50,603 nt of DNA. It comes from Planctomycetota bacterium. Its GTDB lineage: Bacteria; Planctomycetota; Phycisphaerae; Sedimentisphaerales; UBA12454. The stretch covers positions 1 through 50,603 of the forward strand of contig JAHJUV010000115.1 in the NCBI GenBank assembly GCA_018828825.1, read 5' to 3'. The notes below the pieces were generated by a model that was given only the letters and a program-made list of their open reading frames with translations, was not told the origin of the DNA and made no database searches. Below are positions 23,067-37,690 of this stretch, in pieces (the stretch's first letter is position 1; each line of letters opens with the position of its first letter). Both the position numbers and the translations under genes were made by a program.

Positions 23067-24212
23067 AAATTACGGTTTTTCATATCTTCTGCAAAGGATT
23101 CCAAATGATGCACTCCGGACTTTTCGACTGGCAAACCCGTTTCCAGCAACTCGACAACGGCGGCGACCCACTGGTAAAACTCAACCAAATAGTCAATTGG
23201 GAACTGTTCCGCTCGCCTCTTGAAACCATTCGGGATATCGAACGAAAATCCAATGCGGGTAGAAAGCCTTTCGATGTTATCGTTATGTTCAAGATAATGA
23301 TATTGCAGTCGCTGTACAACCTCTCTGATGATCGGATTGAATTTCAAGTGCGAGACAGGCTTTCCTTTATGAGATTTTTGGGGCTGTCTTTGAGCGATAT
23401 AGTTCCAGATGCAAAAACCATTTGGCTGTTCAGAAAACAATTGACCGAAGCAAAACTTATCAAAAAGCTGTTTAACCAGTTCGATGATTTTCTTCGTGAA
23501 AACGGCTTCTCTGCTAAAAAAGGCCAAATAGTTGATGCGAGTATTATAGCCGCTCCAAAGCAGCGAAACAGCAGGGAAGAAAACAAGGATATAAAGGATG
23601 GCAATACCCCGCAGGATTGGTCTGTGAGCAAGAAACGCCAGAAGGACACAGATGCTCGCTGGACAAGAAAAGGTGGACAGAATCATTACGGCTACAAGAA
23701 TCATATTGATATAGATGTTGAGCATAAACTGATTCGTGATTATGAAGTAACACCAGCTTCGATGCATGACAGTAATGTTTTTGAAGAACTTCTCGATGGA
23801 AACAACAGCAGCAGCGATGTATATGCGGATTCCGCTTACGGCTCTAATGACAAACTCGATGCTTTGAATAAACGCGGTTTTCGCGGCCATATTCAGCGAA
23901 AGGGTTATCGTTATAAGAAACTTAATGAACGCCAGATAAAAAGCAATTATCGCCGGGCAAAAATTCGCAGCCGAGTGGAACATATTTTTGGAGTCCAGGC
24001 AATGCGAGCCGGCAATTTGCTCATAAGAACGATAGGCATAATCAGGGCGAAGGCCAGGATAGGTTTGCGAAATCTTGCGTATAATATAGACAGATACTGT
24101 CTGCTGGCACAGACTTAGCGGCAGGTAGAATGGTGGTTTGGCCCAAAGGCCGCCTATTACCGACTGATAAAGCTGAAAACAGCCAGCTGTACAGTGTGAA
24201 TAACCGTAATTT
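23067..24212 (+). mobile_element. IS5-family insertion sequence (boundaries approximate)
   Basis: Imperfect terminal inverted repeats: AAATTACGGTTTTTCATA at 23067-23084 against the reverse complement of 24195-24212 (AAATTACGGTTATTCACA), 16/18 matches. They enclose a single DDE transposase ORF. No flanking direct repeat was found. Confidence 0.7.
23105..24118 (+). CDS. IS5-family DDE transposase
   Basis: InsH-like N-terminal region (GRKPFDVIVMFKIMILQSLYNLSDDRIEFQVRDRLSFMRFLGL) and a C-terminal DDE region (VYADSAYGS...RSRVEHIFG). Confidence 0.9.
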   Translation: MMHSGLFDWQTRFQQLDNGGDPLVKLNQIVNWELFRSPLETIRDIERKSNAGRKPFDVIVMFKIMILQSLYNLSDDRIEFQVRDRLSFMRFLGLSLSDIVPDAKTIWLFRKQLTEAKLIKKLFNQFDDFLRENGFSAKKGQIVDASIIAAPKQRNSREENKDIKDGNTPQDWSVSKKRQKDTDARWTRKGGQNHYGYKNHIDIDVEHKLIRDYEVTPASMHDSNVFEELLDGNNSSSDVYADSAYGSNDKLDALNKRGFRGHIQRKGYRYKKLNERQIKSNYRRAKIRSRVEHIFGVQAMRAGNLLIRTIGIIRAKARIGLRNLAYNIDRYCLLAQT

Positions 24213-24300: not shown

Positions 24301-24906
24301 TTACAGCACTACCATAACAGTATTCGACGGTTCGCCATCGCCGGATTTGTTGACTGCTACAATTCTATACTCAAGTTCCTTGCTTCGCGGCTGCTCAACC
24401 AATGTTGCTTCGCTGATTACAGCTGTTGCAACTTCTTCCCAGGCTCCGGCAGGCCTTTCACGCCTCATTACCTTATAAGCTGCAGGAACACCGCCATCGG
24501 CAGGGGCTTTCCAGTCGAGAAATACCCAGCCTTCACTCTGATTAGGCGCCTCCAAAAGTCGATGGCCGGGAGGAGTTAAAGCAGTGGCGGTCTTGCGGCC
24601 TGCCCAGCCGATAAGTTTAAGTTTATTATCATCGTAGTTGACTGTATTTTCTGCATATCGAATATTCGATTTTAAAGCTTCAATCAAATCTTCCAATGCT
24701 TCATCTTTTGCAGTTGTTGCCGCTTCTGCACAAGCTTTTTTCGCCAGCGAAGTTTCAAGCTTGTTTTTATACGCTAACGACTTTATCCTCAGGGCCATCA
24801 GATTAACCGGCGGATTGGGATAAATAACGCTATTCAACTGCAAACCACGCCATAACGGCTCTGCTAACGCGGCAACTTCTGCTTCTTTTATAGGAAATCT
24901 TGGCAT
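24301..24906 (-). CDS. Helical N-domain plus fibronectin type III domain protein, function unknown
   Basis: C-terminal FN3-like sequence (GWVFLDWKAPADGGVPAAYKVMRRERPAGAWEEV...YRIVAVNKSGDGEPS). Start placed at MPRFPIKEAE by comparison with the duplicated fragment at 28207-28419. Confidence 0.7.
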   Translation of the reverse strand: MPRFPIKEAEVAALAEPLWRGLQLNSVIYPNPPVNLMALRIKSLAYKNKLETSLAKKACAEAATTAKDEALEDLIEALKSNIRYAENTVNYDDNKLKLIGWAGRKTATALTPPGHRLLEAPNQSEGWVFLDWKAPADGGVPAAYKVMRRERPAGAWEEVATAVISEATLVEQPRSKELEYRIVAVNKSGDGEPSNTVMVVL

Positions 24907-24993
24907 ATTATTCTGGATGTGAATTGCGATGATTAATACAGACAATTTAGCTTTCAGATTCAAGCTTTCAATCTCATAAACGCCTTATGGGAC

Positions 24994-25317
24994 TCATAAT
25001 ATCTGTCCCTGTTTTCTGACATTTAACACCAGAGGCGATTCACTCATAGGGCTATTCCGGACATCATCGAAGCTATAGCAAATGGCAGAAAAAACCCTGC
25101 CGCATTTTAATTCTGCGTCAAAACACAGCTTTATAATCTCCTTTTCGATTTGCCAGTCAACCTTCGGCAGCACTACAAATATATCAATATCAGAGGCTTC
25201 ATCCATTTCTCCGCGCGCTGCCGAGCCATACAAAAGCACTTCTTCTGCCCCAAATTGTTCCCGAAACGCTTTGGCCAATTCCGCCAAACTTTGATTTTCT
25301 AATTCAGACAGTTTCAT
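24994..25317 (-). CDS. Nucleotidyltransferase-domain protein (MNT / Pol-beta fold)
   Basis: GS...D.D signature LLYGSAARGEMDEASDIDIFVVL. Small size (107 aa). Confidence 0.8.
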   Translation of the reverse strand: MKLSELENQSLAELAKAFREQFGAEEVLLYGSAARGEMDEASDIDIFVVLPKVDWQIEKEIIKLCFDAELKCGRVFSAICYSFDDVRNSPMSESPLVLNVRKQGQIL

Positions 25318-25329
25318 TTATATCGTCAA

Positions 25330-26271
25330 TTAGCTTTTTCCACTAAACCACTCAACAAACTTTTTCAATCCGACTGCAATTTCAGTCTTCGGATTATAGC
25401 CGAGCAGTTTTTTTGCCTTGTCCACATTCGCAAACGTCCTTTCAACATCGCCGGGTTGCGACGGCAGACGTTCTATAATCGCTTTTTTACCAAGCGCTTT
25501 TTCAATCTCTTTAATTAAATCATCGAGTCTAACAGGCCTTGATTCGCCGAGATTATAAATCTCATAACCGCTGCAATTGTCGATAGCGCCGGTTACCCCG
25601 TCAATAATATCATCTATATAAGTAAAATCCCGCATCATCGAGCCGACACCGAACATCGGGAGCGGCCTGTCGGCTTCGATAAGTTTCACAAATTTATGAA
25701 TAGCTAAATCCGGCCGCTGGCGAGGGCCATAGACAGTAAATAACCGCAAACAGCTAATATCAATCTTATACAAATGATGATATGTATAACAGATAAGTTC
25801 GCCGGCCTTTTTTGTCGCTGCGTAAGGAGAAATCGGGAAATCCACATTATCGGTTTCAGAAAACGGAACTTTTTTATTGTTGCCGTACACGCTTGAACTG
25901 GAAGCGAAAATAAATTTCTTAACATTAAACTTTTTTGCCGCCTCAAGCATTACCAGCGTTCCATTGATATTCACATCAGCATAACCAGTGGGGTCTTCAA
26001 TTGACGGCCTGACACCTGCTTTTGCCGCAAGATGGACAATTATATCAATGCTCTCTTTGCAGATTGACTGAACACTACCAGCAGCATCTCTTATATCGCC
26101 TTCGATAAGTTTAAATCTGTTCGATGATTTTAAAAGAGCGTTGATATTCGACTCTTTTGTCTTTCTGTCGTAGAAAGCATCAAAATTATCGAGTCCGATG
26201 ACAGTGTTGCCTTGCGAAATCAGCCTTTCGCAGAGATGCGAGCCGATAAAACCGGCAGCACCAGTGACCAA
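25330..26271 (-). CDS. SDR-family NAD-dependent epimerase, UDP-glucuronate 4-epimerase-like
   Basis: TGAAGFIGS, SSSSVYG, YAATK and FTVYGPRQRPDLAIHKF blocks. There is no ATG start. Candidates are TTG at 26271 or CTG at 26283, which would give MKAILVTGAAGFIGS. Confidence 0.8.
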   Translation of the reverse strand: MVTGAAGFIGSHLCERLISQGNTVIGLDNFDAFYDRKTKESNINALLKSSNRFKLIEGDIRDAAGSVQSICKESIDIIVHLAAKAGVRPSIEDPTGYADVNINGTLVMLEAAKKFNVKKFIFASSSSVYGNNKKVPFSETDNVDFPISPYAATKKAGELICYTYHHLYKIDISCLRLFTVYGPRQRPDLAIHKFVKLIEADRPLPMFGVGSMMRDFTYIDDIIDGVTGAIDNCSGYEIYNLGESRPVRLDDLIKEIEKALGKKAIIERLPSQPGDVERTFANVDKAKKLLGYNPKTEIAVGLKKFVEWFSGKS

Positions 26272-26275
26272 AATA

Positions 26276-26303
26276 GCTTTCAGCTTTCAGCCCTCAGCTT
26301 TCA
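26276..26303. repeat. Tandem heptanucleotide array (GCTTTCA x4, one GCCCTCA variant)
   Basis: TCAG recurs with exact 7-nt period at 26280, 26287, 26294 and 26301. The array spans the stop of the four-helix-bundle gene and the start region of the epimerase. Confidence 0.9.
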
Positions 26304-26646
26304 GTTTTTTAATATAACCAGTTAGCATTTTTTTGATTTCGACAATCTTGTCTTCTAATTCTTTATGAACAGAAGCAGGTATATAACCCAAGTCATCTGA
26401 TAATAATAGTTGATACTCAACTTCGCTGGCCGAGCCCATTGAAATCGTCATAAAATATTTCAACTCTTTATCGCCGCTGCGACAGGCTCCCTCTGCAATA
26501 TTACTCGAAATTGAAACAGCCGAACGGCGAAGCTGGCTCGTCAATCCATAAATTTCTTCCTTTGGAAAATTGAGTGCAATTTTATAAACACTCAAAACCA
26601 AATGGTGAGATTTCTGCCAAACTTTTATTTCCCTAAAATCTCTAAT
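26287..26646 (-). CDS. Four-helix-bundle protein (23S rRNA intervening-sequence protein family)
   Basis: Family-typical sequence RDFREIKVWQKSHHLVLSVYKI...LTSQLRRSAVSISSNIAEG...GSASEVEYQLLLS. The conserved N-terminus lies upstream of the TTG at 26601. The only plausible initiator there is ATT at 26646, so this is either a non-canonical start or a pseudogene. Confidence 0.7.
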   Translation of the reverse strand: MRDFREIKVWQKSHHLVLSVYKIALNFPKEEIYGLTSQLRRSAVSISSNIAEGACRSGDKELKYFMTISMGSASEVEYQLLLSDDLGYIPASVHKELEDKIVEIKKMLTGYIKKLKAEG

Positions 26647-26663
26647 TGTGCATTTCCCAAGAA

Positions 26664-26705
26664 CTGATAACTGACAACTGACAGCTGAGAACTGAATGCT
26701 GACAG
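26664..26705. repeat. Tandem heptanucleotide array (CTGANNN x6), inverted relative to the 26276-26303 array
   Basis: CTGA recurs with exact 7-nt period at 26664, 26671, 26678, 26685, 26692 and 26699 (CTGATAA CTGACAA CTGACAG CTGAGAA CTGAATG CTGACAG). Confidence 0.9.
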
Positions 26706-26709
26706 CTAT

Positions 26710-28011
26710 TTACGCTCTTCCTACGCAATAATACTCAAACCCAAGCTTTTTAACGTATGTCGGCTCATAAAGATTGCGGCCATCAAAGATAACAGGTTTT
26801 TTAAGTTTGTCTTTTATCAAATCAAAGTCAGGCATTCTAAACTGCTGCCAATCGGTAAAAATTACAAGTGCATCAGCGCCATCAATCGCCTGATAATCAT
26901 TTTGGGACATTTCAATACTTTGCTTCAACGCCGATTTGGCGGTTTCCATCGCTTCAGGGTCAAAGGCCTTTACTTTGATGCCGGCTTTCAAAAATTTATT
27001 TATGCACCAGATTGCCGGCGACTCTCTTACATCGTCGGTTTTCGCCTTAAAGGCAAGTCCCCAAACCGCAAGGGTGGTTTTATTTTCTCTGCCCTTGAAA
27101 TAACTCAATACTTTATTTGCGAATCTGTCGTGCTGCGAATAATTGGCCTGCTGAACCGCTTCGGCGATTGTTTGGGGACAGGCCATTTGTCTGCCCATAT
27201 AAATCATAGCCTTGACATCTTTAGGAAAACAACTGCCGCCGTAGCCTGCGCCGGCAAACAGAAATGAATTGCCGATGCGCGGGTCCGAGCCGATTCCTGC
27301 GCGGACTTTTTCAATGTCTGCGCCATATCTTTCGCACAGGCCGGAAAGCTCGTTCATAAATGATATTCGCGTTGCCAGCATTACGTTGGCCGCATATTTT
27401 GCGGTCTCTGCGCTGGCGGCGTCCATAAAAATTATTCTGCTGCCTTTGCGCATAAACGGCGAATAAAGCTGCTTCATTGTTTCCTGAACTTCCGCGTTGT
27501 CCGTACCAATGATAACCCTGTCCGGTTTGGCAAAATCGTCAACAGCAGAGCCTTCTTTCAAAAATTCCGGATTGCTTACATAATCAAACGGCACGTTTGT
27601 TTTGCTTTTTATCAAATCAGCCACAATTTTATGCGTACCGATTGGAACTGTGCTTTTTGTAACGATGATTTTGTGCTCCTTCATATACTCAGCGATTTTT
27701 TCACAGACGGCAAGAACCGCTGAAATATCCGCCGAGCCGTCCGGTGCGCTCGGAGTGCCGACGCCGATGATTATAACTTTAGAATTATTAACGGCATATT
27801 TTAAATCCGTTGTGAATGAAAGCCTGCCTGCCCTTTCATTATTTTTGATAATATCGGCAAGACCCGGCTCGTAAATAGGAATGTTCCCTTTTTTGAGATT
27901 ATCGATTTTGTTTTCGTCATTATCGACACAGATTATATGATTGCCGCTTTCCGCAAGACCGCCCGCCGCAACCAAACCGACATAACCAACGCCAACAACT
28001 GTTAATTTCAT
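26710..28011 (-). CDS. ugd: UDP-glucose 6-dehydrogenase
   Basis: MKLTVVGVGYVGLV N-terminus, GGSCFPKD catalytic-Cys motif, and typical length (433 aa). Confidence 0.9.
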   Translation of the reverse strand: MKLTVVGVGYVGLVAAGGLAESGNHIICVDNDENKIDNLKKGNIPIYEPGLADIIKNNERAGRLSFTTDLKYAVNNSKVIIIGVGTPSAPDGSADISAVLAVCEKIAEYMKEHKIIVTKSTVPIGTHKIVADLIKSKTNVPFDYVSNPEFLKEGSAVDDFAKPDRVIIGTDNAEVQETMKQLYSPFMRKGSRIIFMDAASAETAKYAANVMLATRISFMNELSGLCERYGADIEKVRAGIGSDPRIGNSFLFAGAGYGGSCFPKDVKAMIYMGRQMACPQTIAEAVQQANYSQHDRFANKVLSYFKGRENKTTLAVWGLAFKAKTDDVRESPAIWCINKFLKAGIKVKAFDPEAMETAKSALKQSIEMSQNDYQAIDGADALVIFTDWQQFRMPDFDLIKDKLKKPVIFDGRNLYEPTYVKKLGFEYYCVGRA

Positions 28012-28246
28012 ACTTATTCCTTCCTAACCATAAACAACCGCCATCGCGGGCATAATTTACAATTAACGAATCGCTCTGCTGCCATTCCTGAGGAGTCATA
28101 GCAATGGCCTCTATCGGTTCGAATATCTCGTAAATTGCCTCCGACAAAACGTCAATTCTTTCCCAGTAACTTTTATTTTCAAAATCTTTTGATATTACCG
28201 CCACATCTATATCGCTGTCCTGGCGATAATTGCCGCTTCTGCACAA
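27920..28246 (-). pseudogene. 5'-truncated nucleotidyltransferase (MNT-type) gene fragment
   Basis: It encodes ...GNYRQDSDIDVAVISKDFE...IEAIAMTPQEW but lacks the upstream GS part of the motif. Its 5' end is replaced by the FN3-gene fragment. The ORF runs on into the ugd start. Confidence 0.55.
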
Positions 28247-28419
28247 TCTTTTTTCGCCAGCGAAGTTTCAAGCTTGTTTTTATACGCTAACGACTTTATC
28301 CTCAGTGCCATCAGATTAACCGGCGGATTGGGATAAATGGGAATATTCGACAGCAAACCACGAAATAACGGCTCTGCTAACACAGCAATTTCAGCTTCTT
28401 TTTCGGGAAATACTGGCAT
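28207..28419 (-). pseudogene. 5' fragment of a second copy of the FN3-protein gene
   Basis: MPVFPEKEAEIAVLAEPLFRGLL...YPNPPVNLMALRIKSLAYKNKLETSLAKK.CAEAA matches the N-terminus of 24301-24906. About 105 nt are almost identical at the DNA level (2 mismatches by eye). The fragment ends in a premature stop at the junction with the MNT fragment. Confidence 0.75.
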
Positions 28420-36553: not shown

Positions 36554-37534
36554 TTATTTATACCCTTCAGGATTATCATTATGCCATTGCCAGGCAGTTT
36601 CGACAATTTTTTCAAGTTCGGGATATTTTACTTTCCAGCCAAGCTCTTTTATCGCCCTTGTCGCATCCGCGGTCAAAACCGGCGGGTCTCCCGGCCTTCT
36701 TGGGACTTCGGTAACCTTGAAGTTTTTGCCGGTAACCTTTTTAACGGTTTCGATAACATCTCTAACTGAATAACCTTTGCCGTTGCCGAGGTTATAGACA
36801 AGCTCGTTTTGGTTTTCGAGTTTTTCAAGTGCTAAAAGATGAGCAGAGCACAAATCCTCGATATGGATGTAATCTCTTACGCAGGTCCCGTCCGGCGTCG
36901 GATAATCTGTGCCGAAGATTTTAACATCTTCTCTTTTACCCATTGCCGCGGCTATTACCAAAGGGATAAGATGGGATTCCGGTTTGTGGTCTTCGCCAAG
37001 CGTGCCGTTTGCGCCGGCACCTGCGGCGTTAAAATATCTCAAGGCGGCATATCGGAGTCTAATAGTTTGACTTTGAAAACGGCACATCTGCTCGACCGCC
37101 AGTTTGGTATGGCCGTAAGGATTGATTGGGTTTTTCGGAGCATCCTCGGTTATAGGTGTCTTATCAGGAGCTCCGTAAACAGCCGCCGAGCTCGAAAAGA
37201 CAAATTTTTTAACGCCGCATTTCTCCATCGCGGCCAAAAGCATCTGCGTATTGCAAACGTTGTTACTGTAAAATTCGAGTGGTTTTTTGACCGATTCGCC
37301 CGCCTCGATAAACGCCGCAAAGTGCATTACCGCATCGATTTTATTTTCTTTCAAAACCTTTACAAGAAGGTCCAAATCCGCAAGGTCGCCTTCTATAAAG
37401 TCAAATCCCTTTATGGCCTGTTTATGTCCGTTGCTGAGATTATCGAAGACTATCGGTTTATGCCCCGCCTGGGCGAGCATCGCCGTCATATTACTGCCGA
37501 TATATCCTGCTCCGCCGCAGATGAGAACATTCAT
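36554..37534 (-). CDS. galE: UDP-glucose 4-epimerase
   Basis: MNVLICGGAGYIGSN, SSSAAVYG, YGHTK and RYFNAAGA blocks. Confidence 0.9.
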   Translation of the reverse strand: MNVLICGGAGYIGSNMTAMLAQAGHKPIVFDNLSNGHKQAIKGFDFIEGDLADLDLLVKVLKENKIDAVMHFAAFIEAGESVKKPLEFYSNNVCNTQMLLAAMEKCGVKKFVFSSSAAVYGAPDKTPITEDAPKNPINPYGHTKLAVEQMCRFQSQTIRLRYAALRYFNAAGAGANGTLGEDHKPESHLIPLVIAAAMGKREDVKIFGTDYPTPDGTCVRDYIHIEDLCSAHLLALEKLENQNELVYNLGNGKGYSVRDVIETVKKVTGKNFKVTEVPRRPGDPPVLTADATRAIKELGWKVKYPELEKIVETAWQWHNDNPEGYK

Positions 37535-37690
37535 CCCGCACCTTCCAAATATTCATCCCGCACCGGAGAACTATTGAATAAAAAAATGGTGCGGGATTCA
37601 ATAATTTTTTGTAGAGAACCATATATCCCATTAGAAAATAGGAATTTAATAAACTTAAAAGAAATCGAATAAAATGAAGGTGCGGGATTC
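37529..37690 (-). promoter_or_regulatory. Four copies of a GC-rich 10-14 nt motif (ATCCCGCACC core) in the galE leader and start region
   Basis: ATTCATCCCGCACC at 37529-37542 (contains the galE ATG on the minus strand) and at 37551-37564. Inverted copies GGTGCGGGATTCA at 37588-37600 and 37678-37690. Confidence 0.6.

Follow-up and report, generated by a model that had tools for sequence, protein, structure and literature searches.

Here we describe a small gene cassette in a 50,603-nt stretch of DNA from a Planctomycetota bacterium (contig JAHJUV010000115.1 of assembly GCA_018828825.1; hereafter the window), in which a four-helix-bundle (4HB) gene of the PF05635 family is enclosed by inverted arrays of 7-nt repeats (heptads) and occupies precisely the junction between the ugd stop codon and the beginning of a sugar epimerase gene. 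We favour, with somewhat better than even confidence, the explanation that this is a heptad-hairpin cassette of the intervening sequence (IVS) type, co-transcribed inside an operon, with the helix formed by its arms as a substrate of RNase III. To our knowledge, PF05635/TIGR02436 is a very large family whose function is not known and which was named after a handful of rRNA intervening sequences, and tandem heptamer arrays have been described, separately and without explanation, from several genomes. The results presented here join these two sets of observations, in that the gene, in operons, typically sits between inverted heptad arrays that are in register; the rRNA IVS would then be one special case of a heptad-bracketed package that appears to be exchanged between genomes.

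On the minus strand of the window the order is ugd, 4 nt, the 5′ heptads, a 17-nt spacer, the 4HB open reading frame (ORF) and the 3′ heptads, which overlap the epimerase start. The ugd gene (26710..28011) encodes a UDP-glucose/GDP-mannose dehydrogenase that matches all three Pfam UDPG_MGDP_dh domains, and the 4HB ORF (26287..26646; 119 codons plus TGA, with ATT as codon 1) matches the PF05635, TIGR02436 and NF008911 profiles. The third gene (25330..26283) encodes an NAD-dependent sugar epimerase/dehydratase with a Pfam match from residue 5 of its CTG-initiated translation. The 5′ array, at 26664..26705, comprises six NNNUCAG units (on the mRNA CUGUCAG, CAUUCAG, UUCUCAG, CUGUCAG, UUGUCAG and UUAUCAG), and the 3′ array, at 26276..26304, reads CUGAAAG, CUGAGGG, CUGAAAG and CUGAAAG. 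Tandem Repeats Finder reports both as period-7 arrays (26662-26707 and 26275-26308), and a search of the 50.6 kb for CTGAN3CTGAN3CTGA returned two matches, which are the two arrays on opposite strands, against an expectation of 0.00 from shuffled sequences. Inverted heptad arrays around the small ORF had been proposed in a preliminary description of this DNA and are borne out by both searches. The coordinates it gave for the locus all hold on re-reading the window; the 3′ array does consist of four heptads, but these are three GCTTTCA and one GCCCTCA, not four GCTTTCA. The 3′ array codes for the C-terminus of the 4HB protein (KLKAEG, then the stop) and for the first epimerase codons, and is almost invariant in six related loci. 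Many homologues share a conserved C-terminus (..KL[KRN]A[DE]x), which is likewise the translated beginning of a 3′ array.

When 471 nt of minus-strand RNA were folded, the arms were paired in both the minimum free energy and the centroid structures (z -4.3, 0/100 shuffles). The arms alone form 35 bp at -51.0 kcal/mol, compared with -24.7 +/- 3.9 for dinucleotide shuffles (z -6.7, 0/300). The helix reaches past the heptads, where AAAUAGCU, which holds the ugd stop, pairs with AGCUAUUU, representing epimerase codons 3-5. Approximate limits of the predicted arms, both on the minus strand, are 26676..26715 for the 5′ arm and 26266..26307 for the 3′ arm, such that the ugd stop codon (TAA, 26712-26710) falls within the base of the stem. 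The proposal that the arms enclose the ORF in a stem therefore stands, with pairing that beats shuffled controls, but the helix is longer than the ∼28 nt originally estimated.

Translated from the ATT, the ORF scores 130 bits against PF05635 (cut-off 33.8; profile positions 1-106 of 106) and 130.6 bits against TIGR02436 (cut-off 24), confirming it as a full-length member of the 23S-IVS-protein family to which it had been assigned. It is homologous to solved pentameric four-helix bundles, matching XCC0516 (2gsc; E 1.9e-18) and 2rld (E 7.9e-06), each deposited with five chains; 2gsc is described as five four-helix bundles in a reference cited in PMC10053308. The accessory protein Avd of diversity-generating retroelements has a homologous pentameric four-helix-bundle fold, and weak matches to its profiles were obtained; identity with Avd was rejected, the scores being too low (PF22296 30.5 and NF033474 28.9, for cut-offs of 40 and 80) and the scanned ORFs, all within ∼12 kb, including no reverse transcriptase; template and variable repeats were not part of the search. 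Profile searches found no recombinase or nuclease domain in the 119-aa protein, and a PADLOC search returned nothing.

The ORF has no internal stop and no canonical start at its homology-defined N-terminus, which is the ATT at 26646; the first canonical in-frame start is the TTG at codon 16 (26601). The NF008911 alignment begins at residue 1, which places the ATT at the methionine position of the family. Orthologues P0001 and P0002 begin MKDFR, with ATG AAA GAT in their DNA where the window has ATT AGA GAT, and relative to them the 5′ region of the window has a rewritten spacer and a 14-nt (two-heptad) expansion, the latter deduced from four 5′ units in the orthologues against six here. Among close relatives the heptad copy number varies from 4 to 6. 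The non-canonical start that had been remarked upon is thus real in the window but specific to it, and since the orthologues have ATG, the missing start is best explained by recent local degradation. The preliminary description had also allowed that ordinary ATG starts in orthologous loci lacking repeats would speak against it: the orthologous 4HB genes do have ATG starts, but the arrays are present in their DNA. An out-of-frame mini-ORF (AUG CAC AAU UAG; 26642..26653, minus strand), recognised from the window sequence and the orthologue alignment, lies in the degraded initiation region. Because this region has lost its ATG and had its spacer rewritten, the window probably yields little or no 4HB protein. 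In Planctomycetes bacterium ADurb.Bin401 (L089, 19-66), the orthologous 4HB gene has an in-frame premature TAA at codon 15. Taken together, this TAA and the ATT of the window suggest that the ORF decays often while the arrays persist; among intact copies the 4HB dN/dS is 0.13-0.22.

Brackets of the same design surround PF05635 genes in many phyla. A scan of GTDB genomes yielded 80 loci that were kept, 78 of them usable for flank statistics, from Cyanobacteriota, Chloroflexota, Acidobacteriota, Planctomycetota, Verrucomicrobiota, Bacteroidota, Proteobacteria, the Candidate Phyla Radiation and others. On reading the flanks, tandem heptads upstream and their reverse complement downstream were seen in most of the loci, with lineage-specific units (nnTCAGC/GCTGAnn, TTAGCnn/nnGCTAA, TTGGTTG/CCAACAA, AAGTnnA/TnnACTT, GAGCTnC, TAAGAAG and more) whose arms stay complementary. 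A period-7 signal was detected in the upstream flank of 74% and the downstream flank of 79% of 4HB loci, compared with 4% for each in displaced control flanks, and on both flanks in 51/78 loci. The median arm complementarity score was 39.5 (control 19) and exceeded the control 95th percentile in 82% of loci. These scores come from an ungapped helix measure with controls, used instead of RNAduplex on whole 150-nt flanks, which failed to discriminate, chance pairing being common in long sequences. Heptad arrays around other 4HB genes, for which a search of related genomes had been advised, are accordingly found in most of the 78 loci. At the best register the Watson-Crick pairing of the two arms reaches 0.88, whereas a shift of 7 or 14 nt lowers it to 0.61 and an out-of-phase alignment to 0.27, and the commonest array length is five units in both arms (29/78 and 32/78). 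Both neighbouring genes are co-oriented with the cassette in 54/74 loci, at median gaps of 69 and 46 nt, and the 3′ array mostly stops ∼10 nt or less from the next start codon. Five Acidobacteriota loci (L062, L065, L074, L081 and L083) share a common upstream gene end (..gtgaagagcttctag) followed by different units (GAGCTnC, CTnCTAG, nTnTCAG), and the last 7 nt of the upstream gene are in phase with the array, a pattern that hints at a site preference or at arrays seeded from flanking sequence. At L019 (2807-2892) a 4HB cassette lies directly 3′ of a tRNA gene and not of a protein-coding gene.

Comparison with close relatives points to a cassette that moves. The nearest 4HB proteins, with 92% identity (a metagenome contig) and 87% identity (Planctomycetes bacterium GWC2_45_44), come from loci that retain the ugd-4HB-epimerase order and also have arrays in their DNA. 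At the five loci with the closest epimerase relatives (L092-L096), the ugd stop abuts or overlaps the epimerase start, and these are the empty sites, with ugd directly before the epimerase, that the preliminary description had proposed to look for. Nucleotide identity between the window and locus L008 is 92-100% over ∼26640-26245 as against ∼75% in ugd and ∼72% in the epimerase, and dS is 0.15 for the 4HB gene and ∼1.8 for the epimerase; at L002 the same cassette adjoins an epimerase of 48% protein identity. Because the identity of the cassette is far above that of its flanks, we infer that the cassette, together with the 3′ array and the first epimerase codons, has been exchanged between backgrounds. 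The empty sites and the island of high identity support the earlier suggestion of a mobile cassette, and fit an element that is mobile or horizontally exchanged.

The ugd|epimerase junction holds other occupants elsewhere. ORF-less inverted heptad hairpins with different units are found there at L114 (60-175), where nGACAGA x8 followed by TCTGnCT x4 resembles the GACAGAT unit of Coxiella, and at L098 (1375-1490), where AAAAGCA-type units stand opposite TTTTTGC units. At L107 (445-1480) a bracket of AAATTCT x3 and AGAATTT x3-4 surrounds two ORFs, one encoding a member of a distant 4HB subfamily (..GANYIEA..) and the other a ∼160-aa product without assignment. Screening for 4HB genes near epimerase relatives was by tblastn and hidden Markov model (HMM), in place of a regular expression that was too crude; the A1 HMM misses the L107 subfamily.

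In the window, the start of the gene that follows the cassette is altered as well. Approximately 70 of the 80 closest metagenomic epimerase relatives have ATG AAR GNN as their start, with the ATG five codons ahead of the TG in the glycine motif, and as this falls exactly at the CTG of the window (26283-26281), which is the conserved N-terminus of its epimerase, the CTG occupies the ancestral ATG position. A single substitution, ATGAAAG to CTGAAAG, gives a perfect heptad, and we propose that the epimerase ATGAAAG would have been assimilated into the last heptad in this way. With ATGAAAG changed to CTGAAAG, translation must begin at CUG or, in this window, at the downstream in-frame TTG (26271-26269). 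The CTG junction CTGAAAGCTGAGGGCTGAAAGCTGAAARCT is present in the window, L001/L002, L008, L089 and L091, and the lack of a canonical epimerase start that had been noted for the window is therefore no isolated case, the CTG recurring in five cassette-bearing loci. L002, L089 and L091 have no ATG, GTG or TTG ahead of GxxGxxG; the complete epimerase ORFs are intact in L002 and L089, and L091 is known from an 80-codon fragment. In five loci the 4HB stop precedes the CTG by 6 nt, compared with ∼90 nt in L091. At the Phycisphaerae locus L013, which also has a cassette at the ugd|epimerase junction, the cassette is followed by an ordinary Shine-Dalgarno sequence and an ATG. Epimerase dN/dS values of 0.03-0.10 are no proof of expression from CUG, because they mostly reflect history before the cassette arrived. 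On a practical level, annotators should be aware that genes downstream of heptad cassettes may be without canonical start codons.

Under the IVS-type reading, the cassette would be transcribed as part of the polysaccharide operon in which it lies, and its two arms would pair within the polycistronic RNA. By analogy with the Coxiella 23S IVS, the helix would be a substrate of RNase III, and the arms are probably processed by this enzyme; cleavage would free the 4HB message and split the ugd message from that of the epimerase. Loss of the 4HB ATG and the CTG start of the epimerase would both be secondary consequences. No promoter-like or terminator-like sites were found on the minus strand within 26250-26720. 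The Coxiella burnetii 23S IVS codes for S23p, with 3-4 GACAGAT heptamers in tandem ahead of the ORF, and RNase III cuts within its 28-bp terminal stem, at the first repeat; its horizontal acquisition has been inferred (PMC4990558). The window element resembles rRNA IVSs (those of Coxiella burnetii and Leptospira) in the protein family and in having tandem heptamers just upstream of the ORF (here six, 26705-26664), and resembles the Coxiella IVS in the long stem of terminal inverted repeats around the ORF (35 bp, -51 kcal/mol), in inferred horizontal acquisition and in an ORF that is sometimes decaying. It differs in its unit (CTGANNN here, GACAGAT there), in a 3′ arm that overlaps two coding regions, in that RNase III cutting is demonstrated for Coxiella and predicted here, and above all in its site, which is between protein-coding genes of an mRNA operon and not in an rRNA helix. 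As its architectural features are all common to the Coxiella IVS except for the rRNA location, we class it as IVS-like, an element that would work in the manner of an IVS without being an rRNA IVS. The original idea of an IVS-like cassette accordingly holds for family, bracket, stem, empty sites and mobility.

Several observations weigh against this reading. The flanks are ugd and the epimerase gene in place of a 23S or 16S rRNA helix, and none of 40 sampled homologous loci (0/40) is in rRNA, with the consequence that the IVS analogy rests on architecture; Rfam gave no match over 25000-28200. Mismatches in 47 strong helices divide evenly between G:U-type (46) and A:C-type (45), without sense-strand bias. 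This equality leaves no signature of selection on the sense-strand RNA, and arm complementarity may be kept up at the DNA level, for instance by quasipalindrome correction or through symmetric protein-binding sites, and not through selection for an RNA stem. No target-site duplication is visible at the cassette. Finally, arrays occur without a 4HB gene, in the L114 and L098 hairpins, in phage contigs and in the paired sites of Geobacter metallireducens (PMC2700814), and the ORF may be a passenger of the arrays. Of 175 arrays in viral contigs, none lay next to a 4HB gene, and the finds there were limited to ORF-less hairpins and ORFs of other kinds. Eight IMG/VR contigs (L183, L186, L187, L201, L213, L216, L268 and L273) carry ORF-less hairpins of at least 4 nnnTCAG followed by at least 4 CTGAnnn units, 28-67 nt apart from start to start, with no 4HB gene nearby.

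The main rival is a mobile or recombining element that acts at the DNA level: an oligomeric protein, perhaps the 4HB pentamer, would bind the heptads, which would be the terminal inverted repeats of this element, in an arrangement like that of a RAYT gene between inverted repetitive extragenic palindromic (REP) sequences, and the RNA helix would be a by-product. The even mismatch count agrees with this, as does the in-register complementarity expected of true inverted copies, and the commonest array length of five units matches the five chains of 2gsc and 2rld; the island-like identity of the cassette and the occupation of one site by different cassettes in different genomes point the same way. 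Set against these are a 119-aa protein without a recombinase or nuclease domain, the lack of a visible target-site duplication, and the strong co-orientation and tight packing of neighbouring genes, which suggest dependence on read-through transcription, in addition to a Coxiella stem that is demonstrably an RNA processing site (PMC4990558). On balance we consider this rival unlikely. We are more doubtful of an explanation through translation control, whereby the 3′ array would be a Shine-Dalgarno-less leader and the stem would hide the epimerase start, such that CUG initiation needs 4HB translation or stem cleavage. It draws on the recurrence of CTG at the ancestral ATG position in the window and in L001/L002, L008, L089 and L091, the intact ORFs of L002 and L089, which together with L091 have no canonical start, the 4HB stop 6 nt before the CTG in five loci, and 3′ arrays that elsewhere mostly end ∼10 nt or less from the next start; nnnCTGA-type arrays right upstream of start codons have also been described (MacGregor 2015, PMC4679880). 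However, the ∼90 nt between stop and CTG in L091 mean that direct termination-reinitiation is not general, the CTG junction travels with the cassette and its recurrence is thus not independent evidence, and L013 has its ordinary initiation signals after the cassette. It also counts against this explanation that initiation at CUG is very weak in those bacteria in which it has been studied.

Two further explanations appear far less probable. Neutral debris, meaning slippage-prone repeats around a decaying pseudogene, functionless at every level, would account for the 4HB copy without ATG in the window, the premature TAA in L089 and the copy number of 4-6 among close relatives, and the Coxiella S23p ORF has been reported as probably not expressed and decaying (PMC4990558). 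It is nevertheless difficult to reconcile with a bracket conserved in many phyla with its complementarity in register, with the strong orientation bias, and with the dN/dS of intact 4HB copies, and we judge it very improbable. Recoding, with readthrough or frameshifting fusing Ugd, the 4HB protein and the epimerase, was suggested by the single frame from 28011 to 25330, and we give it next to no credence. It is true of this window that the frame is interrupted solely by two stop codons: after the ugd TAA it stays open until the TGA at 26289-26287, and then continues through the epimerase to 25330. The relation between the ugd and 4HB frames is not conserved in orthologues, however, being broken by a 1-nt indel in L008, and it shifts with every 7-nt step in copy number; that between the 4HB and epimerase frames, which had also seemed special, follows automatically from heptad geometry, because in (CTGANNN)n each CTG has a TGA 6 nt upstream, and the TGA-CTG phase is therefore inherent to the repeat. 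Furthermore, with three or more CTGANNN units each of the three frames has a TGA, and this works against readthrough.

ORF-less arrays of related type are known from other bacteria. In Geobacter metallireducens, class 3 paired sites of MTYCTGA x5 lie between operon genes (PMC2700814), and TAACTGA arrays of Beggiatoaceae, Cyanobacteria and Bacteroidetes adjoin start codons, few canonical ribosome-binding sites being present (PMC4679880). The window arrays share with both the nnnCTGA heptad type and a length of about five units, with the former the pairing on opposite strands between operon genes (PMC2700814), and with the latter an end beside a start codon (PMC4679880), the 3′ array entering the epimerase start; in contrast to these ORF-less elements, they enclose a PF05635 gene. 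IHF/HU, or S1, Csp or CsrA, have been proposed as binders (PMC2700814, PMC4679880), and keyword searches of the two texts revealed no connection with the 4HB or 23S-IVS protein family. Our literature search, in which full-text coverage was incomplete, found no paper tying PF05635 genes generally to flanking inverted heptad arrays, which is absence of evidence only.

A broader and rather speculative proposal, which we hold to be improbable as it stands, is that PF05635 proteins and tandem-heptad arrays form one widespread self-contained module, in which the pentamer recognises about five heptads as RNA or DNA. The protein would then maintain, regulate or spread heptad hairpins that colonise operon junctions and rRNA helices, and ORF-less hairpins and nnnCTGA arrays (in Geobacter, Beggiatoaceae, cyanobacteria and phages) would be non-autonomous derivatives, comparable to REPINs in relation to RAYTs. 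The arrays could also supply non-AUG, Shine-Dalgarno-less initiation regions for downstream genes. RAYT genes are small genes flanked by inverted REP sequences (the REPIN system), and the repeats are also present as ORF-less intergenic hairpins. The analogy lies in the single small gene between inverted repeats and the ORF-less hairpins; unlike RAYTs, the system described here has no Y1 transposase domain, and its repeats are tandem heptads of lineage-specific sequence.

The cassette lies in a co-directional gene cluster extending from ∼14.5 to 37.5 kb of the window and composed mostly of polysaccharide genes, including glycosyltransferases, DegT aminotransferases, acetyltransferases, epimerases, a flippase and a second dehydrogenase. 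The Pfam-matched ORFs of at least 150 aa between 14.5 and 38 kb encode polysaccharide enzymes, one hexokinase and one insertion sequence (IS) transposase, and three ORFs are without a match. The transposase is of the IS5-type DDE family (PF01609 and DUF772; 23105-24118) and is encoded on the opposite, plus strand within the cluster. A 190-nt direct repeat (24717..24906 and 28230..28419; 89% identity, spacing 3513 nt), whose second copy duplicates, in truncated form, the 5′ part of a 220-aa ORF at 24301-24963, brackets a block consisting of a nucleotidyltransferase (NTase) fragment, ugd, the 4HB gene, the epimerase gene and an NTase gene, which suggests that the block came in, or was rearranged, as one piece. 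The two small MNT-type NTase ORFs that flank it are on the minus strand (24994-25317 and 27920-28246), and the second appears truncated; their counterparts at the orthologous locus L001 form HEPN-NTase pairs, and no HEPN partner was seen in the window. A 22-nt tandem repeat (2.5 copies, 68% matches; 37523-37575) is located at the end of another epimerase gene (36557-37534).

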